Source: Candidatus Spongiisociaceae bacterium (lineage in GTDB: Bacteria > Actinomycetota > Acidimicrobiia > Spongiisociales > Spongiisociaceae). From it: a stretch of DNA of 64,000 nt. Each line of letters starts with the position of its first letter. Position 1 is the first letter of the stretch. The stretch spans positions 128,001 through 192,000 of the forward strand of contig OZ253564.1 in NCBI GenBank assembly GCA_965262915.1, in the 5' to 3' direction. Below, piece by piece: positions 1 to 59,430 of the stretch. The position numbers and the translations under genes were made by a program. Under the pieces are notes generated by a model. That model did not search any database and was not told the DNA's origin. It saw nothing but the letters and a program-made list of their open reading frames with translations.

Positions 1-73
1 GCATCAGGGTCACCCCGAGTTGATCCGGCTCGATGGGACCGTTGACCGTGATGACTTTCCCCAGGTCTTTCAT
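1..73 (-). CDS. Phosphotriesterase-related (PTER/PHP-like) protein, 5' end only (runs off window)
   Basis: Reverse strand reads MKDLGKVITVNGPIEPDQLGVTLM, nearly identical to the N-terminus of 10178-11245. GGAGG RBS upstream. Confidence 0.8.
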   Translation of the reverse strand, partial: MKDLGKVITVNGPIEPDQLGVTLM

Positions 74-177
74 GGATCCTCCGTTGTCATGTTCCGCCGA
101 CAATAGACGCAGCTATTGCACCTCGCATCACGGCCGGTCTGCACCGCCCGATATCGCGAAAGTGGATCCGGACGCGG

Positions 178-1152
178 CTACTCAGGACGACCCCCCGGTG
201 GGGGTGGTTGGCCGGCCATGTCGTAGGGGTCTCCGGCGGTCAGGTCCCACCCGTCGAGCCCGGCCTCAGCTTCTCGAGCCACCTTGTGGATGAGGCGGCC
301 GGCCTCCGAACCAGCCAGACGGTCGGCGGCGTAGCGGGACACGACGATACTCGTCCGGGCCATGTAGTACGCATGAGGTACCAGGGTGTCCAAAGACCAG
401 TCGGCATACTCGTATGACCCTGCCTCACGCCACTTCGACGCCATCTCCGGGGTCACCTCGACGAACATCCCCCGGAGATGATCCCGCTGCTCGACGGGGA
501 GAGCCCCCAACAGATTCCCGAGGTCGTGGGTGCGGGCGGGTCGGCTACCTCCGAGATGGATCAGAGCCTTGAGCGCGGTTTCCATCGCCATCTGGGCGTC
601 GGCGCATAGACGACACATACGGTTCCTCATCCCGAAGAGGTAGTAACCGGGATCACGGTCCTCCAGAGCACCTGATTCGGTGAGACCCATCACCAGTTGA
701 TCGTGCACGCCGGATAGTGCCCGGAGGGCGTTGTGGAGGCGGCCGGCAGCCTCTTCCCTGTTGGTGGCAGGCATACCGATCTCCTTCCCCCAGCGCACAC
801 CGTCCGGTTCCCGGTGATACAACGTGACAGCATCGGCGGTGATGGCACACTCCAGCGAAGTCGACACTTCCGTGGCGCGACGGGTCCACTCCGGCCAGTC
901 GGTAACATACACGAACACACGGCGACCGGCCGCCTCGTCGGCCAGCCGTCCGAGTTCGTGCGATCTCTCACGCCGGATCGAGTAGTCGAGATCGTCATGG
1001 ATCGCTACCAGGTCGATGTCGCTGTCCGGGCCCGCGTCGCCGCGGGCCACCGACCCGAACACCAGCACCTCCGACACCCCCTCCACCGCGACCGCCTCGG
1101 CTGCTCTCTCGGCGTCCGCCATGCACGGCGGGGATATCAGGGTCGTTGCCAT
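178..1152 (-). CDS. Fused minimal nucleotidyltransferase (MNT) + HEPN domain protein
   Basis: N-terminal VFGSVARGD...DSDIDL NTase motif; C-terminal helical domain with ETALKAL...RTHDL typical of HEPN. Start placed at MATTLISPP. Confidence 0.8.
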   Translation of the reverse strand: MATTLISPPCMADAERAAEAVAVEGVSEVLVFGSVARGDAGPDSDIDLVAIHDDLDYSIRRERSHELGRLADEAAGRRVFVYVTDWPEWTRRATEVSTSLECAITADAVTLYHREPDGVRWGKEIGMPATNREEAAGRLHNALRALSGVHDQLVMGLTESGALEDRDPGYYLFGMRNRMCRLCADAQMAMETALKALIHLGGSRPARTHDLGNLLGALPVEQRDHLRGMFVEVTPEMASKWREAGSYEYADWSLDTLVPHAYYMARTSIVVSRYAADRLAGSEAGRLIHKVAREAEAGLDGWDLTAGDPYDMAGQPPPPGGRPE

Positions 1153-1175
1153 GCCCGTGATCCTACCGGCGCCGG

Positions 1176-2315
1176 TCACTCGTAGGCCGGGACCGCACAT
1201 CCCGTGAACACCTCGGTCCCTTCGGTGGTAATGACCAGGACATCCTCGATCGTGTAGGCCCCAACCCCGGGGACGCCCATGATCAGCTCCAGAGTCATCA
1301 CCACGTTGGGGCGCAGAACGACATCAGGTGTCTGGTCCGCCAGCCAGGGCATCTCCACAACCTCTATCCCTATACCGTGGCTGGCGTGGATCAGGTGACG
1401 GGGATCGACCCCGTTGTCCTCGAGAACTTCCCTAATGGTCCGGTCCACCAAGCCGAAGGTCACGCCGGCTCTCATCACACCCAGGGCTGCAGCTCTGGCC
1501 TCGAGCATCCCGTGCCGGACCCTCTTCAATGCGTCGGGCGCCGGTCCGAAATGCGAGGTGCGGGTGAAGTCGGAGCGGTAGCCCTTGTACTTGGCGCCCA
1601 GATCGATCATCACGGAGTCGCCCCGGCCGATCCTTCGCTCCGTCGCGCCGTAGGTCACGCCGCCGAACCGCTCCCCGGAGGACACGATGGGGGAGTAGGC
1701 AACGTTGTGAGCGCCGTGCCCCAACATGGACTCCATCGCGGCCGCGGCCACATCCACCTCCCTCATCCCGTAGATGTTCGGGAGAACATCAACCATCGCC
1801 AGGTCGGCTATCCGGGCCGACCTGCGCACCCGGCTGACCTCCTCGTCGGATTTGACCATGCGCAGTTCGTACACGAGTCGGGTCGCGTCGACGAGTTCCA
1901 CCGCCGGTAGGGTGGCCTCCAGTCTCTTGGAGAGGTTGTGCGGAAGGAAACTACCCTCGACCCCTAAGGTGCGGACACCGCTCGATATGCGTCTTGCGAC
2001 GACAGACGCCGGGTCTTCGGGCTGGTCGTACACGACGTGGTCCAACCAGGTGACCGTATTCATGATCCCGGGACTGGTAACCGCGTAGTAGATGAACTCT
2101 GCGGAGTCCTCGGAGACGTATATGAGCTTTCCGATGCCCTGCGATGTCTCCATGGGCTGGAAGTCGACCAGGTCGATGCCCGTCAGGTACTCGAGGTTGC
2201 TCGGGCTCAGTATGACGAGCGCGTCGATGTCCGCCGCCCGCATGCTCCGGCGCAATTCCCGGATCCTGCGCGTGAAGTCCGCCAACGCGTCCTTGTCCGT
2301 TGGTTCTGCGTACAT
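1176..2315 (-). CDS. M24 family (Xaa-Pro) peptidase / creatinase-like
   Basis: Creatinase N-domain; VKSDEE, DLG...GYRSDFTRT, HGIG, TLE and IED metal-ligand motifs. Confidence 0.88.
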   Translation of the reverse strand: MYAEPTDKDALADFTRRIRELRRSMRAADIDALVILSPSNLEYLTGIDLVDFQPMETSQGIGKLIYVSEDSAEFIYYAVTSPGIMNTVTWLDHVVYDQPEDPASVVARRISSGVRTLGVEGSFLPHNLSKRLEATLPAVELVDATRLVYELRMVKSDEEVSRVRRSARIADLAMVDVLPNIYGMREVDVAAAAMESMLGHGAHNVAYSPIVSSGERFGGVTYGATERRIGRGDSVMIDLGAKYKGYRSDFTRTSHFGPAPDALKRVRHGMLEARAAALGVMRAGVTFGLVDRTIREVLEDNGVDPRHLIHASHGIGIEVVEMPWLADQTPDVVLRPNVVMTLELIMGVPGVGAYTIEDVLVITTEGTEVFTGCAVPAYE

Positions 2316-2485
2316 TCGATACTCCATCCGGGGCACTAGCAGAACGGGGCCTTCCATCCCAGGTGCCCGGCAGTACAGGATACGTCCGATCAATAAGGAT
2401 TGCTTTTGCTTCCGCTCACCGAACCGGACCAGCCCGGGAACGGTGTATATCCTGGCTGACAGGTCAGGAAGAGGGGGAACACCGG

Positions 2486-3460
2486 ATGGCAGGCCAACCG
2501 GCAATCGTCGAGGCCGGGACTCGGGGAGCGCCGGGAGTGACCCTGGGCGCTGTCGCCTTTGCCCACACCTACGACAAGGAGAAGAACCTGGGTCGCTTCG
2601 AGGGCCTCATCGAGACCGCCGCGGGGCGTGGCGTCGATCTTCTTGTCTTTCCGGAGGCGGGGCTGAACGGCGCGGCGTGGAGTGCGGCTGGGGCGTGGGA
2701 GGGACCGCCCGAAGCCCTACGCCATCATTACCAGACCTCGGAGACCATTCCGGGCCCGACGACCGACCGGCTCTGCTCCGTTGCCGGCCGGCACGACATG
2801 ATTCTGGCCGTCCACATGACCGAGCGTCATCGCCATTACGGGAAGGGTAAAGGCGGGTTGTACAGCTCGGCTGTGCTCCTCTCGGGCGAGGGGGTTCTCC
2901 ACGTCCATCGCAAGGTTCACATCGCGGGGCCCGAACGTCACGTCTTCCGCAACGGACGAGAGATCGCCGCTGTGGACACTCCGGTCGGACGCCTGGCCAT
3001 GGCGATCTGCTACGACATCGTCTTCCCCGAGACGGCTCGCGTTGCCGCGGTCGAGGGAGCGGACATCCTGCTGTTCCAGACCGCTTGGTCACAGGCTTTC
3101 GATCCGCCGTTCCTGGACCACGACCCGGCCTTCGCCGGGACATCGAACTACTCGCTCAGCTCCCTGCTGGGGGTCCGGGCGTTCGAGAACCAGATGTGGA
3201 TCGTCGTGTCGAGTGCCGCCGGGCTGGACGAACGTCTCGGTCTGACCTGGTGGGGCGAAGCGAAGATCGTGGGACCCGACGGTGTCACGCGCGTGCAAAC
3301 ACCGCTGGGAGAGGAGGGCATCGCGATCGCGTACGGCTGCGCGGTCGACGAGGAGATCATCCGCTCCCGGACCGAGACGTACTGGGGTGATAGCTTTCTC
3401 TTCGATCGGAGGCCCCGCGCCTACTCGTCCATCGCCGATGAGGACAAGCTCTATCCCTAG
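2486..3460 (+). CDS. Carbon-nitrogen hydrolase (nitrilase family)
   Basis: Catalytic triad motifs VFPE, HRKVH and ICYD; RAFENQ. Confidence 0.92.
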   Translation: MAGQPAIVEAGTRGAPGVTLGAVAFAHTYDKEKNLGRFEGLIETAAGRGVDLLVFPEAGLNGAAWSAAGAWEGPPEALRHHYQTSETIPGPTTDRLCSVAGRHDMILAVHMTERHRHYGKGKGGLYSSAVLLSGEGVLHVHRKVHIAGPERHVFRNGREIAAVDTPVGRLAMAICYDIVFPETARVAAVEGADILLFQTAWSQAFDPPFLDHDPAFAGTSNYSLSSLLGVRAFENQMWIVVSSAAGLDERLGLTWWGEAKIVGPDGVTRVQTPLGEEGIAIAYGCAVDEEIIRSRTETYWGDSFLFDRRPRAYSSIADEDKLYP

Positions 3461-3490
3461 TATGGACACACCCAAGACATGGAGGGGCTG

Positions 3491-3676
3491 ATGAAGGTCG
3501 ACCGGATCCTCTGGCTCGTGTCCGATACCGTGCGCGCCGACTATCCCGGCTACGCCGGCGGCCACGTTCACACCCCGAACCTCGACGCCCTGGCAGCCCG
3601 CTCGACGGTGTTCAACCGTCACCTGTGCCGGGTGTCAGGTGCCGGGTGTCGGGTATCAGGTGCCGGGTGCCGTTGA
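3491..3676 (+). pseudogene. Sulfatase N-terminal fragment truncated by a heptamer repeat array
   Basis: ILWLVSDTVRAD...TPNLDALAARSTVF is a sulfatase N-terminus. The frame enters repeats before the CxPxR motif and stops. Confidence 0.8.
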
Positions 3677-3718
3677 CGATCATCAAGGACTGACACCTAG
3701 CACCTGGCACCTAGCACC
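3624..3718. repeat. Inverted pair of degenerate 7-bp tandem arrays
   Basis: About 7 units of GGT(G/A)(C/T)C(A/G) at 3624-3672, then 4 complementary units (TGACACC TAGCACC TGGCACC TAGCACC) at 3691-3718. Confidence 0.85.
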
Positions 3719-3835
3719 TGTTTCCGGATGCCGGTAGTCGGGGGCGAGCACCGAGACGGGTTTTGGTTATGGTGATCACACCAACGTCACGCCTCGCGGC
3801 CCGGGTCGGGAGAGGCGGAAGGAAAGGGGACGACC

Positions 3836-4726
3836 ATGATCATCGATAGCCACGTATGGCTCTCGAAGCCGGAGCACTGGGGCGGGAAGGGCGTGATGGA
3901 CGACGCCATGTACGCGGCCGGGTGGGGCGCCCGCGGTCTGGGTACCAAGACGGGGCTCGTCCAGGGTATGAGCCCTGAGCAGATGATCGAGCGGATGGAC
4001 GAGGCCGGCGTCGACATGGCGGTGTGCCACGCGAGCAAGGTGCCTCACCTGAACTCCGAGGTCCCCCCCTCGTTCGTGGCTGCGGCGGTGGAGAAGTACC
4101 CCGACCGTTACATCGGGCTCGGCAGCGTCGACCTGTTCGGGGGCCTGAGCGCGCTGCGCGAGATGGAGGAGATCGTCGACATGGGCCTGGTGGGTATGAA
4201 GATCTCGCCCGCCAGCAGCTTCGACATGCCTCTCAACGACGTCTCGATCATGCCGATCTACGAGAAGGCGGAAGAACTAGGGATGGTCATTTTCGTGCAT
4301 ACGGGATGGTCCGGGTACTTCCTGCTCAAGAACCAGCATCCCCTCCTCCTCGACGACGTGGCGGTGCGCTTCCCCGATCTGAAGCTGTTGGTGGTCCATG
4401 CCGGGGAGAACTACTACGAGGAAGTGGTGATGATGATGCTGAAGAACCCCAACATGTACGCCAACACCGGTTGGTGGGGATTCCTGCAGCCTCTCGAGAC
4501 CAACATCCGGTTCCTCAAGTACGCCAAGCACTTCATGGTGCTCGACAAAGTGCTGTGGGGAACCGACAACTACGACTGCCGCGACGATGTCCCGTTCGTG
4601 AAGTCCCTGCCCGCTCAGGCGGCCGAACACAACATCGCCCCCGGGCTGCCGGAACTCACCGACGATGACATCGCCGACTACATGGGTAACAACGCGGCCC
4701 GCCTGTTCGGTGTAGGAGAGTGCTGA
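3836..4726 (+). CDS. Amidohydrolase family protein (Amidohydro_2), paralog 1
   Basis: IIDSHVW, GMKI, VHTG, VVHAG and LWGTD motifs; GNNAARL end. Confidence 0.9.
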   Translation: MIIDSHVWLSKPEHWGGKGVMDDAMYAAGWGARGLGTKTGLVQGMSPEQMIERMDEAGVDMAVCHASKVPHLNSEVPPSFVAAAVEKYPDRYIGLGSVDLFGGLSALREMEEIVDMGLVGMKISPASSFDMPLNDVSIMPIYEKAEELGMVIFVHTGWSGYFLLKNQHPLLLDDVAVRFPDLKLLVVHAGENYYEEVVMMMLKNPNMYANTGWWGFLQPLETNIRFLKYAKHFMVLDKVLWGTDNYDCRDDVPFVKSLPAQAAEHNIAPGLPELTDDDIADYMGNNAARLFGVGEC

Positions 4727-4815
4727 GAAACCCCCCGCTGGCCCACGGTCGATGACAAGATGCCACGTCAGCGAACGACGGGCCAGCCATTTACCTGTTT
4801 TTCAGCATTCTCCTA
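4713..4815. mobile_element. MITE-like ~103-bp element with terminal inverted repeats
   Basis: TAGGAGAGTGCTGAGAAA ... TTTTTCAGCATTCTCCTA, with internal GCTGGCCC/GGGCCAGC stem. Related to 11374-11491. Confidence 0.6.
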
Positions 4816-4856
4816 GGCACCGGCTGACCGCGTCAGAGCCCGTATAACCTCGGAGT

Positions 4857-5792
4857 ATGCGGGCTGTAGTGATGCATTCGGCCGGTTCGCCGGTCGTGAT
4901 CGAGGAGCGGGTCCCACCGAACCCCGGCCCGGGGCTCGTGGTGGAGGTACTGGCGTGCGGGGTGTGCCATACCGATCTCCACCTGCTCGAGAGCGAGCAC
5001 ACCCGCACCCCGCACGTGCTGGGCCATGAGATCGTGGTTGCCGACTCTGGCGGGGAACCGTGCCTCGTCTATGCCAGTTGGGGATGCGGGCAATGCGGAC
5101 ACTGCCGGTCAGGGGACGAGGCGATGTGTCCGAATGTGGAGATCGTCGGGGTACATGCCGATGGTGGCTACGCGCAGGCTCTGGTGATCCCCGACCAGAG
5201 CTATCTCTACCCCATCGGAGACTTGGACCCGGCCATGGCGGCGCCGCTCGCCGACGCGGGGGCTACCTCCTATCGGGCTGTTCGCAGGGCTATGCCGGCG
5301 TCCCGGGCGGTCGTCATCGGGATCGGCGGTCTGGGCCAGTTCGCAATCCAGTGGTTGCGGCTGGCGGATTGTCGCGTGACCGCCGTCGACACGGCACCGG
5401 AGAAGCGCCTCCGAGCGATCGCTCTCGGCGCCGACGAGGCTCTTCCCCCGGAAGCCGACATGGCACCCGCCCCGGTCGTCCTCGACTTCGTCGGCACCGC
5501 GGAATCGTTGGAGTTGGCCAAGTCGGTAGTGGAGCGACAAGGGAGGATCGTGATCGTCGGAGGGGGCGGAGGGACCATCGCGGTCGGCATGGAGACGATC
5601 CCCTACGAGACATGGGTCACCACGTCCATCATGGGATCTCGTCCCGATGTCGCCGCGGTGCTCGACCATGCGCAACGCGGCGACATCGAATGTCACGTCG
5701 AAGAGGTCCCTCTAGAGGATGCCCACTCGGCCCTGGACCGCTTGCGAGCCGGAGCGGTCACCGGTCGTCTGGTGCTGAAACCAACTCGTTGA
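4857..5792 (+). CDS. Zinc-dependent alcohol dehydrogenase
   Basis: CGVCHTD, GHE, CGQCGHC..C and GIGGLG motifs. Confidence 0.93.
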   Translation: MRAVVMHSAGSPVVIEERVPPNPGPGLVVEVLACGVCHTDLHLLESEHTRTPHVLGHEIVVADSGGEPCLVYASWGCGQCGHCRSGDEAMCPNVEIVGVHADGGYAQALVIPDQSYLYPIGDLDPAMAAPLADAGATSYRAVRRAMPASRAVVIGIGGLGQFAIQWLRLADCRVTAVDTAPEKRLRAIALGADEALPPEADMAPAPVVLDFVGTAESLELAKSVVERQGRIVIVGGGGGTIAVGMETIPYETWVTTSIMGSRPDVAAVLDHAQRGDIECHVEEVPLEDAHSALDRLRAGAVTGRLVLKPTR

Positions 5793-5913
5793 AGCCCCGA
5801 CGAAGCCATCGTGGCGTCCATCGTCCGAGCCATATCCAGCTCATTTCCTCGGGTCTTGAACCTGTCACGCGCATCCGGCATATCGGGTCGGATAGCGCTG
5901 GAGAGGGTCGTTC

Positions 5914-7125
5914 ATGGTGACTGAATACGACGTGGCGATCATAGGTGGCGGCATTGTGGGCCTTGCGACCGCGGTGGAACTGACGGAGCGGTTTCCTGGT
6001 CGGCAGTTCGCCGTGCTGGAGAAGGAACCGCGGGTCGCCGAGCACCAGTCGGGGCGCAATAGCGGGGTCATCCACTCCGGGCTTTACTACCGCCCCGGGT
6101 CGCTGAGGGCGGCCCTCTGCCGGGAGGGGATCGGTCGCCTGACCCGGTTCTGTGAGGAGCGCGGCGTCGATTACACGCGCAACGGGAAGGTCGTCGTGGC
6201 GACGAGCGAAGGGCAACTGCCGGCGCTCGCCGAACTCGAGCGTCGCGGCCTCGCCAACGGCCTCCGCGGACTGAGGCGTATCGGCCCTGAGGAGCTTCGG
6301 GAGATCGAACCGCACGCTGCCGGTATCGCGGCTCTCCACGTGCCCGAGACCGGGGCCGTCGACTTCGCCGCGGTGTGCCGGGCACTGGCCGGCATCCTCC
6401 GAGAGCGTGGCACGACGATCTCGACCTCGTTTTGTGTCGAAAATATCGATGTCGCCCGATCCCATGTCACGGTCGAGGGATCTCGCCGGTCCGTCACGGC
6501 ACGCGCAATCGTCAATTGTGGCGGGCTCTACAGCGATCACCTGGCAAGGGCGGCAGGCGTCGAGCCGGGGGTTCGCATCGTCCCGTTTCGGGGCGAGTAC
6601 TACGACATCACCGGTCCCAGCGCCGAACTCGTCCTGTCGTCGATCTATCCCGTTCCTGACCCGAAGTTGCCTTTCCTGGGCGTCCATCTCACCCGGTCGG
6701 CCGATGGCTCGGTGCATGCAGGGCCCAACGCGGTGCCCGCCCTAGCCCGTGAGGGATACCGCTGGGCAACGGTGCAACCCCGGGAGCTGTTCGAATGGTT
6801 GACCTACCCCGGTTTCCTGAGGCTGGCAGCCAGGCACTGGCGGTCCGGCGTCGCCGAGATCCTCCGATCGGCGAGCCGGAGTCGCTTTACCCGCTCGGCA
6901 AGGGATCTTGTGCCGGAACTCGATCCGAAAGACCTCCGACGAGGAAGGCCCGGAGTTCGGGCTCAGGCCATCACCCGCTCCGGCGGGCTCCACGACGACT
7001 TCCTCATCCAGTCCGGCGCCCGCTCCGTCCATGTGCTGAACGCCCCATCGCCGGCGGCGACATCGTCGCTGGCCATCGGAGCACGCATCGCCGATCAGGT
7101 ACAACAAGTAATCGGGCTTGCGTGA
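5914..7125 (+). CDS. lhgO: L-2-hydroxyglutarate oxidase family FAD enzyme
   Basis: GGGIVG, HQSGRNSGVIHSGLYY, FRGEY, IYPVPDP..PFLGVH, GPNA, GVRAQA and NAPSPAAT motifs. Confidence 0.9.
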   Translation: MVTEYDVAIIGGGIVGLATAVELTERFPGRQFAVLEKEPRVAEHQSGRNSGVIHSGLYYRPGSLRAALCREGIGRLTRFCEERGVDYTRNGKVVVATSEGQLPALAELERRGLANGLRGLRRIGPEELREIEPHAAGIAALHVPETGAVDFAAVCRALAGILRERGTTISTSFCVENIDVARSHVTVEGSRRSVTARAIVNCGGLYSDHLARAAGVEPGVRIVPFRGEYYDITGPSAELVLSSIYPVPDPKLPFLGVHLTRSADGSVHAGPNAVPALAREGYRWATVQPRELFEWLTYPGFLRLAARHWRSGVAEILRSASRSRFTRSARDLVPELDPKDLRRGRPGVRAQAITRSGGLHDDFLIQSGARSVHVLNAPSPAATSSLAIGARIADQVQQVIGLA

Positions 7126-7788: not shown

Positions 7789-8646
7789 ATGTCAGTAGAC
7801 CAGCAGACCGTCAAGGACTCACCGGCGGGAGGTGGGGCGCCGCCATCACGGACCCTACGGATTTCGGCCCGCACCCTCAAGACACTGGTCGTCCCGGCCG
7901 TAGCCGCCGTGATCTGGGTGGCACTCACAGAACTGACCGATATCCGTGAGGTCTTCCTACCGTCTCCATACCGTATCGGCAAGGTTGCGTGGGCCATTCG
8001 GGAGGAGCTGCTAACCGGGTTTTTAATATCTATGCAGATGATCCTCGGAGGCCTCCTTATCGGTGGCGCGCTGGGGATCATCGCCGGCCTGATATTCGGG
8101 TTGAGCCGGCATGCTCGCGATTTTTTCGAGGGCCCGGTGGACCTGATCCGCCCGGTTCCCCTCTTTGCCCTGATACCTCTCTTCATTCTCTGGTTCGGCA
8201 TAGGTAAGGCTCCGCAGATAGCCCTCGTATCGCTTGGCGTTTTCCTGCTCCTGTCGATCGTCACTATCGAGGCCATTCGTAGCGTCTCACCGGTTTATGT
8301 AAGGGCTGCGCTGACGCTCGGCGCCACCCGGAGGGACGTGTACAAGACGATTGTCGTCCCTGCGATCAGCCCCCACCTGATCGCAGGGATACGGCTTGCC
8401 GCTGCGTACTCATTCGGCCTGGACGTGGCGGCTGAGTACAGCGGCTCTCAAACAGGACTGGGCTACATAATGCTCATCCGCGGTTCCTACCTGGACACTC
8501 CGGGGGTAGTACTGATCGTGATCATCTTCGGGATTCTCGCCATCATCTTCGATCAGATCATCAAGGCCTTTTTCCGGCATGCCACAAGATGGAGCCCACG
8601 CACCCGCCGCACCGGAATAGTGAGTGATATGCTCGGAAAATCGTGA
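7789..8646 (+). CDS. ABC transporter permease, NitT/TauT/SsuC family
   Basis: FLPSP, RPVPLFALIPLFILWFG, AA.TLGA loop, VAAE and GLGY motifs. Confidence 0.9.
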   Translation: MSVDQQTVKDSPAGGGAPPSRTLRISARTLKTLVVPAVAAVIWVALTELTDIREVFLPSPYRIGKVAWAIREELLTGFLISMQMILGGLLIGGALGIIAGLIFGLSRHARDFFEGPVDLIRPVPLFALIPLFILWFGIGKAPQIALVSLGVFLLLSIVTIEAIRSVSPVYVRAALTLGATRRDVYKTIVVPAISPHLIAGIRLAAAYSFGLDVAAEYSGSQTGLGYIMLIRGSYLDTPGVVLIVIIFGILAIIFDQIIKAFFRHATRWSPRTRRTGIVSDMLGKS

Positions 8647-8683: not shown

Positions 8684-9874
8684 ATGCGGTATGCGAGGTG
8701 GACGGCAGTCGCTCTCGTTCTGGCGTTGGTCGCCGTGGCATGCGCCGATGACGAGGAGCCGACGACCACGACAGTAGCGGCGACAGCAGCACCGACAACA
8801 GCGGCGCCGGCCATGTTGAGTGACGGCATCGACGGGGAGATCGTCAAGGTTCGGGTGGCCGAAGGTGTGTCCTACGACGACGAACCGTGGATATGGGCAG
8901 ACGAGTTCGGGATCGACACCGACCTGGGAATCGATATCGAGATCATCAAGTTCACTGACTTCCCCCTCCAGGGACTGATCGGCGGGGATTTCGACATGAT
9001 GTTCTCATGCCAGGTCTGCGTCGCGTCGTCGTGGCAGAACTTCCCGGAGTACCGGGACTTCATGATCACCAACCAGTTCAAGGGCTTCATCCTGGTCGGC
9101 AGACCTGGAATGAAGACGTGGTTTGACTTTGTCGAGGAACTCGGAGGCGATGAGCAGGCGGCCACGGAGGCCTTCATCCAATCTCTCGAAGGCATGACCC
9201 TGCCCGTGTGGGATGCCGGCGACATCGCGCTCGTTGAAGCCATGATGAACCAGGGCGGCCTCACCGCTGACGATCTGAACCGGATCGGCTTCCCCGACCT
9301 GCCCAAGGCGGGGCTGGCGTTCATGGCAGGCGAGGGCGACATCTACTTCGGCACGCTGTCACAGGTGGCCCGGATGGTCTACGACCCGGAGACGGCGAAG
9401 GACTTCGTCGTGGCGGCGCCGTTCAACGCGTTCGGTCCGGGCGGGCTGTGGTTCAGCACCATGGGAACCACCCAGACCTTCCTCGACGCGAATCCGGAAG
9501 CAGCTCTGCGGTCGGTCGCGGCTTTCTATCGCGCCGTGCGTTACCTGCACGAGAAGCCGGACGCCGTCATCCCGCTGGTAGACGACAACGTGGCGATAGC
9601 CACCGGCGGAACTCTGGGAACCACCACCACCCTTGAGATCATGACCAACCTGAACTACTTCCCGACGGCCGAAGACGCCAAGCGCGACTTCTTCACCGCC
9701 GGATCGCCGCTCGACAACGAGACATCGATCGGGTTCCTGTTCGACAGGGGGGTAGCAGCAGGCGAGTACAGCGCTGATGACGACTGGCGTACCTTCCAGG
9801 TCTCGGGTGAGTGGCTCGACAAGCTGCTGGCCCGGCCGGACCTGATGGAATACGTGAACTCACCACTCGACTGA
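8684..9874 (+). CDS. ABC transporter substrate-binding lipoprotein (NitT/TauT-like)
   Basis: Lipobox LVAVAC and Thr/Ala linker; follows the permease; paralog of 27027-28394. Confidence 0.8.
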   Translation: MRYARWTAVALVLALVAVACADDEEPTTTTVAATAAPTTAAPAMLSDGIDGEIVKVRVAEGVSYDDEPWIWADEFGIDTDLGIDIEIIKFTDFPLQGLIGGDFDMMFSCQVCVASSWQNFPEYRDFMITNQFKGFILVGRPGMKTWFDFVEELGGDEQAATEAFIQSLEGMTLPVWDAGDIALVEAMMNQGGLTADDLNRIGFPDLPKAGLAFMAGEGDIYFGTLSQVARMVYDPETAKDFVVAAPFNAFGPGGLWFSTMGTTQTFLDANPEAALRSVAAFYRAVRYLHEKPDAVIPLVDDNVAIATGGTLGTTTTLEIMTNLNYFPTAEDAKRDFFTAGSPLDNETSIGFLFDRGVAAGEYSADDDWRTFQVSGEWLDKLLARPDLMEYVNSPLD

Positions 9875-10177: not shown

Positions 10178-11245
10178 TCAGGCAGGTGACTCTGCGGCGA
10201 GAGTCAACACCCGCCGTGGGTTGTCGATCAAGATCTTGTTGATGACGTCACGGGCAACGCCATCCCTGCTCAGCGCGGGGATGATCACGTTCATGATGTG
10301 GTCGTAGCCGGGTCCCCCGAAGCCGGACAGTCTCGACTTGAGCCCGATGTCGTGGGAGAAGAGCAACTGATCTTCATGACCCTCGGAGATCATCCACTCG
10401 ACGGCTCCGACGCGATCACCGTCGGAGACGTATACCCCTTCGGTAGGGCATGGGTGTCCGAACCCGTCGAGTTCGAAGAAGGTGCCGTACTCGGCAACCC
10501 GCTTCATGTAGCGGCGGTCGTGGGTGGTCAGATCCATGTGGCCGGCGATCACTCTGGTGGGATGGACACCCATCTCTTTGATCAGCAGATCCAGGATATC
10601 GGGCATCAGCCTCAGTTCATGTAGCGCGTGAATCTGGATCGCGGCACCCGTAGCGTGGTGGGTGATGGCGGCGGCTCTCAAGACCTTCCACTCAGAGGCA
10701 GGGATCGGATCCGATGTCCCGATCTCCCCGATCAGCCCGCAACGAATATCGGTGCCATCCGCACCCTCGGTTATATCCCGGATCATGCCCTCCGCGAGGT
10801 CATGATCCGTCATCGAATCCACGTACCAGGGCTGGGCATCGTCGACGTAGTACCCGGTACCGGAGATGATGTTCATCCCGACATCATCGGCAATCTTCCT
10901 CAACCCCCATACATCCCTGCCGAGGCCGAGGTCCGAGGAGTCCACAACAGTTCGGCCCAGCGCCATTTTGAATCGCCTGATCTCCATTGCAGTGAGATAC
11001 CAGTCGGTGTTGATCAGGTTGTCTCGGTTGTGGTACGGGAACTGCCGGAGCAAGGCCGCGTTCCGGGCGGTTACCGGCGCGTACGAGTCGGATCCCAGGC
11101 CGCGATGGTTCTCCTCCAGGAACCACATGAGGCACGTGAACAGCAGATGCTCGTGCATGAGGGTGATTCCGAGTTGGTCGGGCTCGATGGGTCCGTTGAC
11201 GGTGATTACCTTGCCTTGGTCTCTCACGGCAACCTCCCTCGCCAT
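10178..11245 (-). CDS. Phosphotriesterase-related protein (PTER/PHP-like)
   Basis: TLMHEH, GTGYY, GLIGEIG, IH, GHMD, SHD, GG.GY.H and NPRR motifs. Confidence 0.92.
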   Translation of the reverse strand: MAREVAVRDQGKVITVNGPIEPDQLGITLMHEHLLFTCLMWFLEENHRGLGSDSYAPVTARNAALLRQFPYHNRDNLINTDWYLTAMEIRRFKMALGRTVVDSSDLGLGRDVWGLRKIADDVGMNIISGTGYYVDDAQPWYVDSMTDHDLAEGMIRDITEGADGTDIRCGLIGEIGTSDPIPASEWKVLRAAAITHHATGAAIQIHALHELRLMPDILDLLIKEMGVHPTRVIAGHMDLTTHDRRYMKRVAEYGTFFELDGFGHPCPTEGVYVSDGDRVGAVEWMISEGHEDQLLFSHDIGLKSRLSGFGGPGYDHIMNVIIPALSRDGVARDVINKILIDNPRRVLTLAAESPA

Positions 11246-11949: not shown

Positions 11950-11952
11950 TCC

Positions 11953-16338: not shown

Positions 16339-16716
16339 TCAGCTGGCAACCTGGAAGATCAGGAGGGGGTTGCTCTCCGGATCGGTGAGTTCGACGTAGC
16401 GGCCCCACTGCCTCTTCACGAACCCACCTACCTCGATCCCGCGGGCGATGAGGCCGTCGCGGGTGGCGTCGAGGTCGTCCACCTGGAAGGCGGCGCGAAC
16501 CGACCCCCCTACCGACATGGGAAGCTCGGCGGGATGGACCGACCGGTCGAAGATCTCGACTCCCGGACCGCCCGCGTCCATGTAGACGAAGTCCACTCCC
16601 TCATCGTATTCAGGGCCAGCATTGATCTCGACGACTTCCAGACCCAAGTCGTCCCGGTAGAAGGCGAGCATCACCTCGACATCCTCTGCGTAGAGCGCCA
16701 CCGCTCCCAGATTCAC
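16339..16716 (-). CDS. VOC/glyoxalase family protein
   Basis: AFYRDDLGL, F.VDDLD and WG......DPESN motifs. Confidence 0.88.
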   Translation of the reverse strand: MNLGAVALYAEDVEVMLAFYRDDLGLEVVEINAGPEYDEGVDFVYMDAGGPGVEIFDRSVHPAELPMSVGGSVRAAFQVDDLDATRDGLIARGIEVGGFVKRQWGRYVELTDPESNPLLIFQVAS

Positions 16717-23456: not shown

Positions 23457-23463
23457 CCGTCGC

Positions 23464-44308: not shown

Positions 44309-44588
44309 CTCACCGTGGAACGAGTCGCACCTCATCTTCGGACGAGACCACTGGGTCTCGGACCAGGAGCGGGTAGAGACGCTCGCCCGGTTGTGCGCAG
44401 ACGGCTACAGCAAGCAGGTCATGATTGCGCACGACCACTGTCTCAAGGTGCACTTCGCCGAGCACGGCGGCAAGGGATGGGTGTACACTCTGACCGAGGT
44501 GGTTCCGATGCTGCGCGAGGCCGGGGTCACCGAAGATCAGTTGAACGATATCCTGGTGGAGAACCCGAAGCGGATCTTCGCCGTCTGA
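44308..44588 (+). pseudogene. PTER-like gene C-terminal fragment
   Basis: PWNESHLIFG.DHWVSD.ERVETLAR...NPKRIFAV matches 16748-17800. Confidence 0.88.
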
Positions 44589-54678: not shown

Positions 54679-57600
54679 CTAACCGGGCGGTCCGTAGCCA
54701 CCGCCGCCCGGGGTGGCGATCTCGAACACGTCTCCCGGTCCGACCTCGGCCTGCGAGTTGCCGGCCATCTCCTCGATCCGCCCGTCGGAGCGGAAGATGC
54801 GGTTGCGGCCCACCGACCCGGGATCGCCGCCATCGACGCCGAAGGGCGCGATCACCCGGCGGGATGACAGGATGTTGACGGTCATCTCGTCACCGAACCG
54901 GACCCGGCGCACGGCGCCATCGCCGCCACGGTACCTGCCCCGCCCTCCTGACCCTTTCCTGACCTCGAAGCTATCCAGCCGGACGGGGAACCGCCACTCC
55001 AGCACTTCGGGATCGGTCAGGCGGGAGTTGGTCATGTGGGTGTGCACCGCGCTGCGACCGTCACGTCGAGGGGTCGCTCCCGCCCCGCCGCAGATCGTCT
55101 CGTAGTACTGGTAGCGGTCGTTGCCCCAGATGAAGTTGTTCATGGTTCCCTGCGACCCGGCCACCACCCCCAGAGCGCCGAAGAGCGTATCGACGATCTG
55201 CTGGCTGGTTTCGACGTTGCCGGCGATCACCGCGGCCGGGTATTCCGGGTTGATCATGGAGTTCTCCGGGAGCACGATGGTGATCGGCTTGAGACATCCT
55301 TCATTGAGGGGGATAACCGCATCCACGAGGCAGCGGAACACGTAGAGGACCGCGGCGTGCGCCACCGCCCGCGGGGCGTTGTAGTTACCCGGATGGATCC
55401 CGCTGGTCCCGGTGAAGTCCACCACGGCGGAGCGGTTCTCCCGGTCCACGCTGATCTTCACCTCGATACGGCTCCCGTCGTCCATGTCCCCCACGAAGGA
55501 CGAATCGGCCAAGGCGTCTATGACCCGGCGCACCGACTCCTCGGCGTTGTTCTGGACGTGGACCATGTAGGCGTGGACCACGTCGAGACCGTAGTGGTCG
55601 ATCACCGCCCGCAGCTCGGTGGTCCCCTTCTCGCACGCCGCCACCTGAGCCTTGAGGTCGGCGATGTTGTGCCCGGGGCTCCGGGCGGGGTAGGGTCCTC
55701 CGGCCAGCAGATCCCTCAACTCCTGCTCCTGGAACCTCCCCCCCGATACGAGGGTGAAGTTGTCGATGAGGATCCCCTCCTCCTCCACCGTCGTACTGTC
55801 CGCCGGGGCCGAACCTGGAGTCCGCCCACCGATGTCGGCATGATGTCCACGGGAGGCCACGTAGAAGATGACCGATTCCTCGGCCTGGTCGAAGACCGGT
55901 TTGACGACCGTGATATCGGGCAGGTGCGTACCGCCGTTGTAGGGAGCGTTCATCACGTAGCAGTCCCCGGGCGCCATCCCCTCGGAACCGCCCCGGTCGT
56001 GGATTATCGACTTGATCGACTCGCTCATCGAGCCGAGATGGACCGGCATGTGGGGGGCGTTGGCGATCAGGTCCCCTTGCGGGTCGAACAGTGCGCAGGA
56101 AAAATCGAGCCTCTCCTTGATGTTGACCGACACCGCGGTGTTCTCCAGGACCAGGCCCATCTGCTCGGCGATATTCATGAACATGTTGTTGAAGATCTCC
56201 AGGCGCACCGGGTCGGCGTCGGTGCCGATCGAAGTCCGCCGGGGCAGCGGGACCACCCGCTCCATCACCAGGTCGCCCGAGGCGGTGACCACCGCCTGCC
56301 AGCCCGGTTCCACCACCGCTGTGGAGGTCGTCTCGATGATCACGGCCGGGCCGGCCACCGGGTGGGCGGCGGGGATCGACGCCCGGTCGAAGAAGGGAGT
56401 GGGCACCCACCGACCCTCCACGTATGTCTCGTAGGTCTCCATCGGAGCGGGCTCCTCCGTGGCCACGGGTGGCAGACCGAGCGGCACCTCGTCGCTGTGC
56501 CCGACCACCTCCACCTGGATCGACTCCACCTCCAGGGGTGTCTCGGGAGAGAGGAAGCCGAAGCGCGCCACGTGCGCCGCCTCGAAACCACCGACAACGT
56601 CGGCCAGCGAGCCGGCCGTCACCTCCAGCGACGTGTCGGAGCCCCGGTACCTGACCCGCACCCTGCGCACCACTTCGGTGCGGTCCGTGCCGACCCCCTG
56701 GGCCCGCATGGCCGCAGTCCCGGCCGCCGCCAGATCCCCGAAGTCCCCTTCCAGCCGCGCCAGCAGGTCCTCGTCCAGCCGCCCCTCGACGGAGCGGTCT
56801 CGCACCACCCGCACATCGGCCAGCCCGATACCGAAGGCCGACAGGACCCCGGCGTAGGGGTGGCTCAGGACCCGCCGCATACCGAGGCTGTCGGCCACCC
56901 GGCAGGCGTGCTGCCCGGCCGCGCCGCCGAAGCACGCCACCGTGTAATCGGTCACGTCGTAACCCCGTTGCACCGAGATCTTCTTGATCGCGTTGGCCAT
57001 GTTCTCCACCGCGATGGCCAGGAAACCCTCCGCGACATCCTCGGGGGTCTGGGGAGTACCGGTGGCCGAAGCGATCTCGTCGCTGAGGGCACCGAAGAGG
57101 GACCGTGTGCAGCCGGCGTCGAGGGGTAGGTCGGCATCCGGTCCGAACACCTTCGGGAACAGATCGGCCTGGAGGCGTCCCAGCATCACGTTGCAGTCGG
57201 TGATGGCCGGCGGGCCCCCGTTCCCATAGCAGGCCGGTCCCGGATCGGCCCCGGCGGAGTCCGGCCCCACCGTGAGGCGGCTCCCGTCGAAGTGCAGGAT
57301 CGAGCCTCCCCCGGCCGCCACGGTGTGGATCAGCATCATCGGCGCCCGGACCCGCACTCCGGCGACCTCCGTCTCGTAGGTACGTTCCAGCTCGCCGGCG
57401 TAGTGGGACACGTCGGTCGAGGTCCCGCCCATGTCAAAACCGATCAGGCGGTCGTATCCGGCCGCCAGACCGGTTCGGACCATACCCACCACCCCGCCGG
57501 CGGGACCCGACAGGAGGGCGTCCTTGCCCTGGAAGGCGTGGGCGCCGGCCAGCCCCCCGTTGGACTGCATGAACATGACACGGGGGCGTTGCTCGGAGAT

Positions 57601-58314
57601 GGACGCCAGCTGCCGCTCGACCTGGTCTATGTAGCGGCGCAGGATGGGCGACAGGTAGGCGTCTACCACCGTGGTGTCTCCCCGCGCCACCAACTTCATC
57701 AGCGGGCTCACCTCGTGGCTGACCGATACCTGCCCGAACCCGAGCCGCCGGGCGATGGCGGCCACCCGCTTCTCGTGGTCGCGGTGGCGGTAGCCATGCA
57801 TGAACAGTATGGCCACCGAGTCGATACCCTCGGCCTTGGCAGCGACCAGCGCTTCTTCCACCGCGTTCTCATCCAGGGGAACGATCACCTCCCCGCGGGC
57901 GCCGATCCGCTCATCGACCTCGATCACCGATCCGTAGAGCATCTCCGGCATCTCGATGTCCAACTCGAACAGGTCGGGGCGGGTCTGGTAACCGATCAGC
58001 AGGGCGTCTCTGAAACCCTTCGTGGTCACCAGCACGGTCGGCTCCCCCTGGCGCTCCAGAAGGGCGTTGGTCGCCACGGTGGTGCCCATCTTCACGGAGT
58101 CGATCGGGGCCTCCATACCGGTCCGCTCCAGGAGCCTGCGGATTCCCTCGATCGCCGCATCGGGGTAGTGGCGGGGGTTCTCGGACAGGAGCTTGCCGGT
58201 GAGCACGTCTCCGCCCGGCGTCCGGGCCACCACGTCGGTGAAGGTGCCGCCCCGGTCGATCCAGAACTGCCAGCCGGCAGTATCAGACCTCGTAGTCGGT
58301 TCCTCGATGCTCAT
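54679..58314 (-). CDS. 5-oxoprolinase (ATP-hydrolysing)-type fused hydantoinase A/B
   Basis: [60 protein letters not shown] and TPGGGGYG motifs. Confidence 0.93.
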   Translation of the reverse strand: MSIEEPTTRSDTAGWQFWIDRGGTFTDVVARTPGGDVLTGKLLSENPRHYPDAAIEGIRRLLERTGMEAPIDSVKMGTTVATNALLERQGEPTVLVTTKGFRDALLIGYQTRPDLFELDIEMPEMLYGSVIEVDERIGARGEVIVPLDENAVEEALVAAKAEGIDSVAILFMHGYRHRDHEKRVAAIARRLGFGQVSVSHEVSPLMKLVARGDTTVVDAYLSPILRRYIDQVERQLASISEQRPRVMFMQSNGGLAGAHAFQGKDALLSGPAGGVVGMVRTGLAAGYDRLIGFDMGGTSTDVSHYAGELERTYETEVAGVRVRAPMMLIHTVAAGGGSILHFDGSRLTVGPDSAGADPGPACYGNGGPPAITDCNVMLGRLQADLFPKVFGPDADLPLDAGCTRSLFGALSDEIASATGTPQTPEDVAEGFLAIAVENMANAIKKISVQRGYDVTDYTVACFGGAAGQHACRVADSLGMRRVLSHPYAGVLSAFGIGLADVRVVRDRSVEGRLDEDLLARLEGDFGDLAAAGTAAMRAQGVGTDRTEVVRRVRVRYRGSDTSLEVTAGSLADVVGGFEAAHVARFGFLSPETPLEVESIQVEVVGHSDEVPLGLPPVATEEPAPMETYETYVEGRWVPTPFFDRASIPAAHPVAGPAVIIETTSTAVVEPGWQAVVTASGDLVMERVVPLPRRTSIGTDADPVRLEIFNNMFMNIAEQMGLVLENTAVSVNIKERLDFSCALFDPQGDLIANAPHMPVHLGSMSESIKSIIHDRGGSEGMAPGDCYVMNAPYNGGTHLPDITVVKPVFDQAEESVIFYVASRGHHADIGGRTPGSAPADSTTVEEEGILIDNFTLVSGGRFQEQELRDLLAGGPYPARSPGHNIADLKAQVAACEKGTTELRAVIDHYGLDVVHAYMVHVQNNAEESVRRVIDALADSSFVGDMDDGSRIEVKISVDRENRSAVVDFTGTSGIHPGNYNAPRAVAHAAVLYVFRCLVDAVIPLNEGCLKPITIVLPENSMINPEYPAAVIAGNVETSQQIVDTLFGALGVVAGSQGTMNNFIWGNDRYQYYETICGGAGATPRRDGRSAVHTHMTNSRLTDPEVLEWRFPVRLDSFEVRKGSGGRGRYRGGDGAVRRVRFGDEMTVNILSSRRVIAPFGVDGGDPGSVGRNRIFRSDGRIEEMAGNSQAEVGPGDVFEIATPGGGGYGPPG

Positions 58315-58344
58315 GGTGGGTCCTTGCGCTGCTCGGGCGGCCGG

Positions 58345-59430
58345 CTAGGTGGAGCCGCCCGGTGTGGGAGTCAGGATCCGCCTGGGGTTCTCCACCAGCA
58401 TGTTGTGTATCTGCTGTTCGGTCACCCCCAGACGCCGCAGCAATGGTACCGCCCACTCCAGCACCAGCGAGTAACCCGACCCGCCATAGCGTTTCCACAG
58501 CATCCGCATCCCCACGTCCTGGGCCATCACGATCTGGCGGTCATAGCCCTCCTTGCAGAGGATGGCTATGGAGTTGACGCGTTCGATGTCGGATGGCATC
58601 CGGCACCCACCCAGGAACCCGGGCGCGTTGATGCCCTCGTACCCGAATGTGTCGTAGGAGACGGTGGCTCCCCGGTCCAGCAGCCTCCGGTGGTAGTCGA
58701 GGTGGTCGAGACTCAGATCGCAGTGGCTGAGGTAGAAGCTGTCCAGATCGGCCCCCTCCTGCTCGATCAGATCCAGGTATGCCTCGCCCACCGTGGCGAT
58801 GCCCCCTCCCCGGGCATCGAAGATGGAAGGGTGGATGGTGAAACCCACCCCGGTCCTGATCTGGGTACGGCAGGCCGCCCGGAGGATCTTCTCCTCCTCG
58901 GCGTGATACGGCAGCGGATCCTCGGAGCAGGCACACTCGCCGATGGAGCCGGCCCTGATCCCGGTATCGCCGATTCCCTCCTCGATCTCCTCCACCATCA
59001 GATCGGCCACCTGGTCGGCGTCCATCCTCCTCACCCAGTCCGGGTGCGTCGCGTGCTTGTAGAACCCGGTGGTGGTGATGATGTTCAGTCCGGTCGCCTC
59101 CGCGATCCGGCGCAGGGCCACGGGGTCCCGGTTGAGGCCGACGCCGGTGTTGTCGACCACCGTCCTCCCGCCGCGAGCGGCGAAGTGACCCAGTTCCTCG
59201 GCGGCGATCCCCTCGTCGTTGAGCGACATGTTCTCCAGGTTGGGCGCGCCACGGCGGAGGGCGCCGAGGATGTCTATCGTGATCGGCAGGTCCCAGTAGG
59301 GGAAATCGGAGTGGTCCTCCCGGTCCGCGTAGAGGGCGGGTCCCCCGCCCGAATACACGTGTTCGTGCAGGGAGACGACTCCGAGTTCATCCGGGCTCAC
59401 GGGTCCGGTGACCGTCTGGATCATGTTCAT
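58345..59430 (-). CDS. Phosphotriesterase-related protein (PTER/PHP-like)
   Basis: IQTVTGP, LHEH, TGFY, GSIGE, IHP, SHCD, AQD and NPRR motifs. Confidence 0.9.
   Translation of the reverse strand: MNMIQTVTGPVSPDELGVVSLHEHVYSGGGPALYADREDHSDFPYWDLPITIDILGALRRGAPNLENMSLNDEGIAAEELGHFAARGGRTVVDNTGVGLNRDPVALRRIAEATGLNIITTTGFYKHATHPDWVRRMDADQVADLMVEEIEEGIGDTGIRAGSIGECACSEDPLPYHAEEEKILRAACRTQIRTGVGFTIHPSIFDARGGGIATVGEAYLDLIEQEGADLDSFYLSHCDLSLDHLDYHRRLLDRGATVSYDTFGYEGINAPGFLGGCRMPSDIERVNSIAILCKEGYDRQIVMAQDVGMRMLWKRYGGSGYSLVLEWAVPLLRRLGVTEQQIHNMLVENPRRILTPTPGGST

Follow-up and report, generated by a model that had tools for sequence, protein, structure and literature searches.

In this study we describe a locus of a Candidatus Spongiisociaceae sponge symbiont in which two types of PTE-family hydrolase, A and B, have a fixed place in a single old operon-like unit, with an ABC importer at one end and a minimal microcompartment shell at the other. 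On balance we favor the view that this is an uncatalogued metabolosome type, found so far only in Spongiisociaceae that live in sponges. It would degrade a sponge-holobiont metabolite that has a nitrogen ring by means of an ATP-dependent lactamase, two amidohydrolases resembling PTER, two orphans and a new subfamily of CxxC binding proteins, and a shared 49-residue tag would target an AldDH and a DUF3830 protein to a three-protein shell. The window we analyzed is a 64,000-nucleotide stretch of contig OZ253564.1, and the shell lies just outside it.

Ca. Spongiisociaceae has expanded Glu-bridged, insert-bearing PTE-family hydrolases with varied active-site linings; the host genome carries 31 PTE-family loci and the other Acidimicrobiia families sampled carry 0–2. 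Searches with tblastn and Pfam PF02126 recovered all seven loci that a first-pass annotation had placed in the window (0.39 are expected per 64 kb by chance), of which three are intact, one has only its start inside, one is frameshifted and two are remnants. Of four copies described as full-length, those at 10178, 16748 and 58345 are intact but the one at 34518 is not. PTE-A (10178..11245, minus strand, 355 aa) is 76% identical to PTE-A2, an intact 348-aa gene (G000 127027-128073) that runs out of the window with its 5' end at 1..73 (minus strand). PTE-B (16748..17800, minus strand, 350 aa) is a core gene with 92–95% identity across three genera. PTE-G (58345..59430, minus strand) is also intact and is followed by a fused oxoprolinase-family gene (whole unit 54679..59430); it has a sugar-type ABC system as its neighbor, and the nearest NitT parts are 30 kb off. 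PTE-D (34518..35571, plus strand) is a B-type paralog with a one-base frameshift at about 35354, lies in a block that has a second copy at G000 4.91 Mb, and has an intact twin at G000 4912476 (99% identity). Since the X9 run contig matches the window sequence with no gap at this position and the X13 contig is without that base, the frameshift looks like a real polymorphism; X9 may represent the sample from which the window sequence came. The last two loci are a decayed B-type 5' remnant (35615..35963, plus strand) and a B-type 3' remnant (44301..44588, plus strand) that lies behind an IS256-type transposase and is also present in L010 and L057. Both adjoin IS elements, and as each separately matches B-type genes there is no support for their being halves of one gene. 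A paralogous cluster, L020, holds A- and B-type PTEs together with an arylsulfatase-family gene, a CocE and an RNase-Z-like hydrolase.

Lysine at the bridging position of OPH and PTE-like lactonases is carboxylated. In our alignment this residue is Lys in OPH and Glu in all copies (GLIGE, GVIGE, GVIGE and GSIGE in the window), as had been noted, but E. coli Php has Glu as well. The window copies score far below the cut-offs of the NCBIfam models for OPH and phospho-furanose lactonase. They do have a PTER-like helical insert after HEH, measuring 67–71 residues compared with 67–70 in animal PTERs, 37 in Php and 41 in OPH, although bacterial Rsp3690-like and Pmi1525-like proteins have it too (67) and PTE-G is without the PY..DNL letters that were taken as part of it. 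Two quick trees set the Glu-bridged, insert-bearing branch apart from Php and OPH (support 98 and 99), and the copies fall, as the first-pass annotation anticipated, in the insert-bearing PTER/Rsp3690/Pmi1525 group and away from OPH, PLL and Php. Within that group the same two trees place them outside the PTER-containing clade (support 95 and 88), but AU tests do not reject a placement with animals (A, p 0.322; B+G, p 0.134), and in the large tree the A clade is the closest group to the PTER-containing clade (support 89).

The binuclear-site residues His27, His29, Glu174, His206, His235 and Asp303 (PTER numbering) are kept in the window copies, the Asp303 equivalent of PTE-D lying beyond its frameshift and being present in the intact twin, and the oxyanion residue Tyr131 is kept in 29 of 29 near-full genome copies. 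In PTER the sulfonate residues are Arg209, Arg238 and Tyr268, and His305 is the proton donor (PMC12873775). All four occur in 10/10 named animal PTERs and none in any of the five window copies, with the Tyr268 column falling in a gappy loop and being less sure than the arginine columns. PTE-A has His, Leu and Gly, and PTE-B has Val, Gly and Cys, at the positions of Arg209, Arg238 and His305; across the window copies the two arginines are replaced by His/Leu, Val/Gly or Ile/Leu, and His305 by Gly or Cys, with His found in just 2 of 29 genome copies, both beyond the window. The pair of sulfonate arginines occurs in 0/29 near-full genome copies versus 33/41 unnamed relatives nearer animal PTER, and it is among the relatives that have the pair, not the window copies, that true bacterial N-acetyltaurine hydrolases should be looked for.

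Among solved structures PTE-A is best matched by sponge PTER (223 bits versus 201 for Rsp3690), and PTE-B and PTE-G are best matched by Rsp3690. The latter match raises the alternative that the PTEs are phosphonate, phosphate, sulfate or carboxylate esterases like Rsp3690 and Pmi1525, for which esterase activity is stated in PMC5341072, and that the locus imports an oxyanion ester; the presence of both PTE types in L020 alongside a sulfatase and other hydrolases is consistent with this. We regard it as unlikely, however, because the window copies are excluded from the Rsp3690/Pmi1525 clade (support 100), whose neighbors are sugar-type ABC, TenA and BtpA genes, and because the sulfatase is outside the core locus.

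The locus runs from CocE through the ABC importer, the ATP-dependent lactamase, PTE-B, PhyH, a PLP enzyme and an orphan to PTE-A, and then to AldDH and the shell. Its first gene, a CocE/NonD hydrolase (25108..26856), is followed on the same minus strand by two NitT/TauT-type permeases (22557..24336), a fused hydantoinase/oxoprolinase A+B (18682..22560) from a family with 29 matches in the genome, a NitT/TauT-type ABC ATPase (17829..18605), PTE-B, a VOC/glyoxalase-family protein that is optional among relatives (16339..16716), a PhyH-family Fe/2-oxoglutarate dioxygenase with HxD...H present (14531..15481), a threonine-synthase-like PLP enzyme that scores under the NCBIfam threonine synthase cut-offs (13252..14469), orphan 1 (12318..13127) and PTE-A. 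The 269-aa orphan 1, a locus marker with 46% identity to orphan 2, has no match in Pfam, PDB or Atlas and only 15 homologs. Solved matches of PhyH are weak (SnoK and MysH), and plasmid matches of PhyH and the PLP enzyme reach only 24–38%. Two CxxC binding proteins with 38% identity to each other are encoded on the plus strand: one (27027..28394) is divergent from the operon and core in relatives, and the other is a lipoprotein (8684..9874) of the SsuA/TauA/ThiY fold with CxxC after strand 3, preceded by a further NitT/TauT-type permease (7789..8646, plus strand) that is below the TauC, SsuC and SaoP cut-offs. Domain and profile searches bear out the reported NitT/TauT-type transporter parts. 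The flank at 28874..32757 (a D-threonine-aldolase/BhcC-like PLP enzyme, amidohydrolase_2 and a second CocE) is conserved in G002, G005 and G022, and a variable block between PTE-A and PTE-A2 (1176..7125; M24 peptidase, carbon-nitrogen hydrolase, amidohydrolase_2, Zn alcohol dehydrogenase and L-2-hydroxyglutarate oxidase) has no match in the G015 and G006 stretches. Sarcosine/dimethylglycine-dehydrogenase-like genes at 38245 and 48329 are split in the window and non-core. A promoter and terminator scan gave signals no more than in shuffles, and contigs from RNA runs cover parts of the locus, among them 1.3 kb of the 27027 gene in a relative, a coverage that we do not take as evidence of expression.

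PTE-A2 is the first gene of the arm that leaves the window on the left, where it is followed by Cucumopine_C, GFO, orphan 2, AldDH, BMC-H, BMC-P, BMC-T and DUF3830 genes. BMC-H (PF00936) and BMC-P (PF03319) are contiguous and over cut-off with AldDH (PF00171) adjacent, which is the combination that defines a metabolosome main locus (Sutter 2021); BMC-T is a CcmP-like match under cut-off, seen on the L039 ortholog. The AldDH and the DUF3830 protein have a common 49-residue N-terminal domain (45% identity), which none of the other genes predicted in the genome carries. Because the PTEs are without this tag, they may act outside the shell.

The order permease-permease-hydantoinase-ATPase-PTE-B is found in 12 of 17 loci, with PhyH and the PLP enzyme next in 10/10 of those 12 that are long enough to show them, and the gene order from PTE-A2 to DUF3830 is kept in 7/7 relatives fetched. 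G015 has the whole gene set in a single run of about 23 kb, and gene order is unchanged in the distant locus L039. The two arms are split by insertions in G000, G022, G020 and others and are on different contigs in G021. Among 29 family genomes, which are related and hence non-independent, a PTE-B ortholog occurs in 13, the orphan in 14 and a single-pentamer shell in 13; PTE-B and shell occur together in 12 and neither occurs in 15. The exceptions, both of them fragmented, are G024, where the shell comes with no PTE-B match, and G439, where PTE-B comes with no shell. Across genera the locus proteins are 79–95% identical while fourfold-degenerate sites match at 46–72%, compared with 41–65% for rpoB, dnaK and recA. 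Conservation of the proteins alongside synonymous divergence like that of housekeeping genes indicates that the locus is old and under purifying selection, and gives no sign of recent transfer between genera.

This conservation bears on whether the region is an assemblage of scavenging hydrolases, unrelated to one another and rich in mobile elements, in which the PTE-shell link reflects hitch-hiking. The 33–53 kb part of the window is indeed full of IS elements, toxin-antitoxin genes and remnants and contains one recent duplication, and other hydrolase families are expanded in the genome too (amidohydrolase_2 with 20 matches, CocE with 12). Such a process fits PTE-D, both remnants and perhaps PTE-G, but it is improbable for the A/B arm, whose gene order is fixed, whose presence is close to all-or-none and which is under purifying selection. 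The claimed clustering of the paralogs with NitT/TauT genes holds for the A and B types (6 of 29 copies), which go with the same importer, and fails for the 23 of 29 copies that are away from NitT parts; the paralogs belong to a genome-wide expansion.

A model of the 8684 binding protein built with 123 sequences reached pLDDT 95 (a single-sequence fold, at pLDDT 37, was useless). Foldseek ranked TauA first, and VIA ranked SsuA first (Z 24.9, rmsd 3.0, 283 aligned), with TauA at Z 21.8 and thiamine, ThiY, PqqT and CmpA binders tied. Judged from this model, the fold fails to separate sulfonate binders from binders of thiamine, pyrimidine, PQQ or bicarbonate. The ligand residues of TauA/SsuA sulfonate-binding proteins are Gln30, Gly61, Gly79, Thr132, Glu106 and Asp205 (PMC6906117). 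Neither window binding protein matches the TauA model TIGR01729 (cut-off 304 bits), the best score in the genome being 37 bits, elsewhere. With the 8684 protein as sole query, a PDB sequence search gave no match. The binding protein also has no plasmid match, and at E 1e-25 a search of 400 other Actinomycetota genomes, in which no more than 4 candidates were scored for each genome, gave none. CxxC is present in 35/61 of the closest binding-protein rows versus 1/62 distant rows.

These results weigh on the first-pass proposal that the island imports and de-acylates N-acyl-taurines, with paralogs dividing the acyl range. Several observations agree with it, namely the sponge PTER match of PTE-A and the position of the A clade, the AU tests that leave the window copies with animals unrejected, the TauA and SsuA ranks of the model, the arylsulfatase-family gene in L020 and a true xsc in the genome. 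We nevertheless find it quite improbable, as the PTER signature, His305 included, is absent from the window copies and the arginine pair from all 29 near-full genome copies, the binding proteins are under the TauA cut-off, xsc is about 300 kb from the window with no PTE or NitT neighbor, and the release of taurine calls for neither the lactamase nor the dioxygenase nor the orphans. On present evidence the substrate is probably not taurine-based.

The reading that we slightly prefer is that the A/B locus supplies de-acylation steps within a metabolosome pathway that is so far uncatalogued and acts on a small cyclic amide. The CxxC binding protein would deliver a small nitrogenous compound containing a cyclic amide for import, CocE would remove an ester or amide group, and the ATP-dependent hydantoinase-family enzyme would open the ring. 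PTE-B and PTE-A could then hydrolyze the acyl-N or ester bonds that are left, using the binuclear chemistry of PTER-type enzymes, after which the PhyH dioxygenase, the PLP enzyme and the GFO dehydrogenase would convert the skeleton to an aldehyde for oxidation by AldDH inside the shell. We infer both how the steps are ordered and what kind of substrate is used; no locus enzyme has a close characterized relative that would show the substrate. Degradation of host creatinine or N-methylhydantoin is suggested by the solved structure that matches the lactamase best (N-methylhydantoinase), by the dehydrogenase-like genes at 38245 and 48329 and by the existence of papers on creatinine use in sponge microbiomes. 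It is the least probable of the alternatives, since those dehydrogenase-like genes are split and non-core and since that route is not known to require a dioxygenase, a PLP lyase, the orphans or a shell.

A metabolosome pathway of this kind would place bacterial relatives of PTER, of whose natural substrates little is known, in a defined pathway. It would also mean that an abundant lineage of sponge symbionts devotes an organelle to one compound, for which the binding protein is a direct handle for fishing from sponge extract. If this is true, the 29 paralogs would be a natural library of how pockets of the PTER type change substrate.

Among known systems, animal PTER, an N-acetyltaurine and N-acetyl-beta-alanine hydrolase (sponge PTER PDB 9EFA/9EFB; PMC12873775, PMC11374699, PMC13311154), likewise has the binuclear site with the bridging Glu, the helical insert and Tyr131, and PTE-A is 35–39% identical to its animal matches. 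It differs in that Arg209, Arg238, Tyr268, His305 and the gate Phe34 are all replaced in the window copies, which also belong to a set of many paralogs in one genome and have an operon context. The bacterial PF02126 esterases Rsp3690 (PDB 3K2G) and Pmi1525 (3RHG/4QSF) have the Glu bridge and insert, and their relatives are likewise without the PTER arginines, but they form a separate well-supported clade whose neighbors (a sugar-type ABC importer, TenA, BtpA and ribokinase) include no shell. N-methylhydantoinase (PDB 7HK5/9H03) is, like the lactamase, a fused A+B ATP-dependent cyclic-amide hydrolase that aligns over residues 11–1255 at 672 bits; the likeness is moderate and at family level, and the rest of the locus is unlike the creatinine route. 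The first-pass annotation knew of no described bacterial locus with this layout, but an N-acetyltaurine system that also combines an ABC importer with an amidohydrolase is annotated in Ruegeria pomeroyi (naaSTR, naaABB'CC'; PMC4334477). By gene layout, naa has two ATPases with tpa and tauABC close by, whereas the present locus has a single ATPase, with no identified taurine genes in its vicinity, and in addition a lactamase, a dioxygenase and a shell. With regard to microcompartments, the portion of the catalogue text searched (Sutter 2021, PMC8217296) contains no PTE, orphan, DUF3830 or Cucumopine_C cargo, and the MIC2 cargo described there (lactate/malate dehydrogenase, a 6-phosphogluconate-dehydrogenase-like protein and glutamine synthetase) is not among the annotated locus genes. 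The ring-opening dioxygenases of the ARO microcompartment are likewise not among the annotated genes of the present locus; ARO (Sutter 2021, PMC8217296; PMC10470539) is itself actinobacterial, with a non-acylating AldDH and, in type I loci, a hydantoinase B gene.

The seven phosphotriesterase-family (PTE, PF02126) loci proposed in the first-pass annotation all contain PTE sequence by tblastn and Pfam, but their intact state differs from what had been described. PTE-A (10178–11245), PTE-B (16748–17800) and PTE-G (58345–59430) are intact genes, as is PTE-A2, which starts at positions 1–73 and continues outside the window, while remnants lie at 35615 and 44301. PTE-D, at 34518, had been taken as full-length but carries a one-base frameshift near 35354. 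At this site the window sequence is matched by one DNA run and the extra base is absent in another; an intact twin (99%) lies within a duplicated block at 4.91 Mb of the host genome (G000). Blocks of 0.6–4.8 kb between 33517 and 50158 are 97–99.9% identical to G000 at ~4.911–4.921 Mb, a recent duplication fragmented by ISL3 and IS256-type elements.

Against an expectation of 0.39 loci per 64 kb the window holds seven, and PTE expansion is a trait of the Ca. Spongiisociaceae family to which the host belongs. PF02126 has 31 matches in G000, is present in 19 of 24 other family genomes (maximum 25 matches), and gives 0–2 matches in 16 genomes from other families of the same order, a tally that takes in G039 with its one match. 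Across a class-wide sample it occurs in 12 of 120 other genomes with ≤2 matches each. Near relatives of PTE-B (92–95%) come from Ca. Spongiisociaceae, Ca. Spongiisocius and Acidimicrobiia. Other large families in G000 are hydantoinase (29 hits), amidohydrolase_2 (20) and CocE (12). Five PTE copies lie at 832–855 kb of G000, and a second cluster (861802–870326) holds CocE, a class III aminotransferase, an alcohol dehydrogenase, an enolase-superfamily-like enzyme (by eye), and D-threonine-aldolase-like and threonine-synthase-like paralogs, the last at 62% to the gene at 13252.

PTE-B belongs to a locus of conserved gene content and order with intact catalytic motifs. Of 17 loci, 12 keep the run permease, permease, hydantoinase, ATPase, PTE-B, and in 10 of them PhyH and a PLP enzyme come next. 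Beyond the window's left edge, PTE-A2 is followed by Cucumopine_C, GFO, the orphan protein 2, AldDH, BMC-H, BMC-P, BMC-T and DUF3830, a minimal H/P/T microcompartment operon (L021:8829–16074, G000 120828–128073) in which Cucumopine_C and DUF3830 are separate genes. This arm was present in 7/7 relatives fetched. In the related genome G015 both arms form one run with only one A-type gene, so the simplest reading of the window's PTE-A is as a duplicate at the side of an inserted block. At L039, a distant locus, the gene order is the same, with two additional genes: a class III aminotransferase and one that is aspartate-dehydrogenase-like. Of 29 family genomes, 13 carry PTE-B, 14 the orphan and 13 a single-pentamer shell; PTE-B and the shell occur together in 12 and neither in 15, the two mismatches being fragmented assemblies. 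Two of the 15 have a different, three-pentamer microcompartment locus (G008:C19:42346–45261; G011:C310 and C375). Locus proteins are 79–95% identical between genera, with 46–72% at synonymous sites, comparable to housekeeping genes.

Inserted in the locus are a fused nucleotidyltransferase-HEPN gene (178–1122), which recurs nearby in several relatives, and a RelB antitoxin gene (15959–16216). At 11489–11698 the orphan gene's C-terminal region is partially duplicated (~90%), and a predicted lipoprotein with no Pfam match (24530–25030, + strand) sits on the opposite strand within the operon and is fast-evolving (50–63% in relatives). Distant homologs of the binding protein (P0011, 32%) and of the orphan (P0031, 41%) come with the same length for the longest contig (10984), a hint that the locus extends beyond Spongiisociaceae.

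We consider it somewhat probable that these genes form a pathway from import through ring opening and PTE de-acylation to an aldehyde oxidized inside the shell. The ABC system would import the substrate, the hydantoinase (18682–22560; best solved match N-methylhydantoinase) would open its ring in an ATP-dependent step, and PTE-B and PTE-A would de-acylate the product; oxidation and elimination would then yield an aldehyde, to be oxidized within the shell by AldDH. The latter is betaine-aldehyde-dehydrogenase-like at 547 bits, below the cut-off, as scored on the L039 ortholog. That the PTEs instead act on oxyanion esters appears unlikely, and that the locus is a chance collection is rather doubtful.

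An island importing and de-acylating N-acyl-taurines had been proposed earlier; an import-and-breakdown locus stands for types A and B, but the substrate is improbable on active-site residues. In sponge PTER, the animal N-acetyltaurine hydrolase, the text of PMC12873775 has the sulfonate held by His206, Arg209, Arg238 and Tyr268 and the proton donated by His305 (the corresponding mouse residues are given in PMC11374699 and PMC13311154). Our alignment of 129 rows held every genome locus except two remnants (29 of 31), 10 of 23 named animal hits and 4 of the 18 closest PTE-A orthologs, with 3 fragments dropped. All four PTER signature residues (Arg209, Arg238, Tyr268 and His305) were present in 10/10 animals and none in any of the five window copies, and both sulfonate arginines were found in 0/29 genome copies. 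Of 41 metagenomic proteins, most without a name, that branch with animal PTER (P0217–P0300, e.g. P0227, P0229, P0250, P0277 and P0241; one carries a thaumarchaeal name), 33 have both. The Tyr is also kept in 32 of these 33, and His305 is replaced. Judged by sequence, the two-arginine proteins make more promising candidates for N-acyl-sulfonate hydrolases in microbes. In R. pomeroyi, a system for N-acetyltaurine made up of an ABC importer and an amidohydrolase is already annotated (PMC4334477). G000 has a true xsc (485398–487110, 857 bits) with no PTE or NitT neighbour and, judging neighbours by eye, no adjacent gene recognisable as a taurine transporter or an aminotransferase.

The Glu and the extra segment after HEH, the two marks noted earlier, are both present but not specific to animal PTER. 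Glu at the bridging position is also found in Php, and the insert, 67–71 residues long in the copies where Php has 37 and OPH 41, is common to proteins like bacterial Rsp3690 and Pmi1525, which a citing paper describes as esterases (PMC5341072); the two marks therefore define a broad group. Against solved relatives PTE-A scored 223 bits with sponge PTER, 201 with Rsp3690, 163 with Pmi1525 and 113 with Php, while PTE-B and PTE-G matched Rsp3690 best (225 and 201 bits), then PTER (185 and 157). In quick trees, whose sampling was biased toward PTE-A, the window copies fell within the insert-bearing group and outside the branch holding animal PTER, with PTE-A closest to that branch and PTE-B and PTE-G elsewhere. 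AU tests, which give the N-acyl-taurine reading some room, did not reject grouping with animals for PTE-A (p 0.322) or for PTE-B plus PTE-G (p 0.134); the case against N-acyl-taurines lies in the residues and not in the tree. Creatinine as the substrate is the least probable of the readings.

Alongside the favoured import, ring-opening and de-acylation pathway stand two CxxC lipoprotein binding proteins, at 8684 and 27027, from a four-member subfamily in G000; in their alignment, CxxC is seen in 35 of the nearest 61 rows. The structure predicted for the 8684 protein (pLDDT 95) has an SsuA/TauA/ThiY fold. Foldseek ranked TauA first; VIA put SsuA at the top (Z 24.9, rmsd 3.0, 283 aligned), and in the VIA ranking binders of thiamine, pyrimidine, PQQ, bicarbonate and taurine tie near Z 22 at 11–15% identity. 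The TIGR01729 profile matched neither protein (for TauA ligand residues see the text of PMC6906117). The association of PTEs with NitT/TauT transporters held for types A and B but not for the remaining copies: NitT-type parts lie within 10 kb of 6 of 29 copies, every one of type A or B. A PTE lies within 10 kb of 3/4 CxxC binding proteins vs 0/9 other NMT1-family ones. Other PTE copies adjoin peptide-type ABC systems or mixed catabolic genes (137 of 250 predicted neighbours scanned). Downstream of the 27027 lipobox, 27160–27260 encodes an acidic EEEEPM-type repeat linker of strain-variable length. A paralogous mini-cluster (L020:5782–15744, G000 57781–67743) contains a CxxC binding protein, a permease, an arylsulfatase-family gene, CocE, tandem A-type and B-type PTEs and an RNase-Z-like hydrolase.

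Among papers outside subscription (the family's description is a subscription paper), none was found on a sponge symbiont and phosphotriesterase, or joining microcompartment, phosphotriesterase and hydantoinase; among the matches listed for the family name was one nomenclature paper. The word "phosphotriesterase" is absent from the text and one supplement of a 350-genome sponge Actinobacteriota study (PMC11706023). The portion of the BMC catalogue's text and supplements covered, as distinct from its locus diagrams, describes no type with this cargo (PMC8217296); the ARO microcompartment is treated in PMC10470539. AldDH and DUF3830 have in common a 49-residue N-terminal domain found nowhere else in the genome, which may be a cargo tag, and in the catalogue's description MIC2 has an extension comparable to this domain (PMC8217296).
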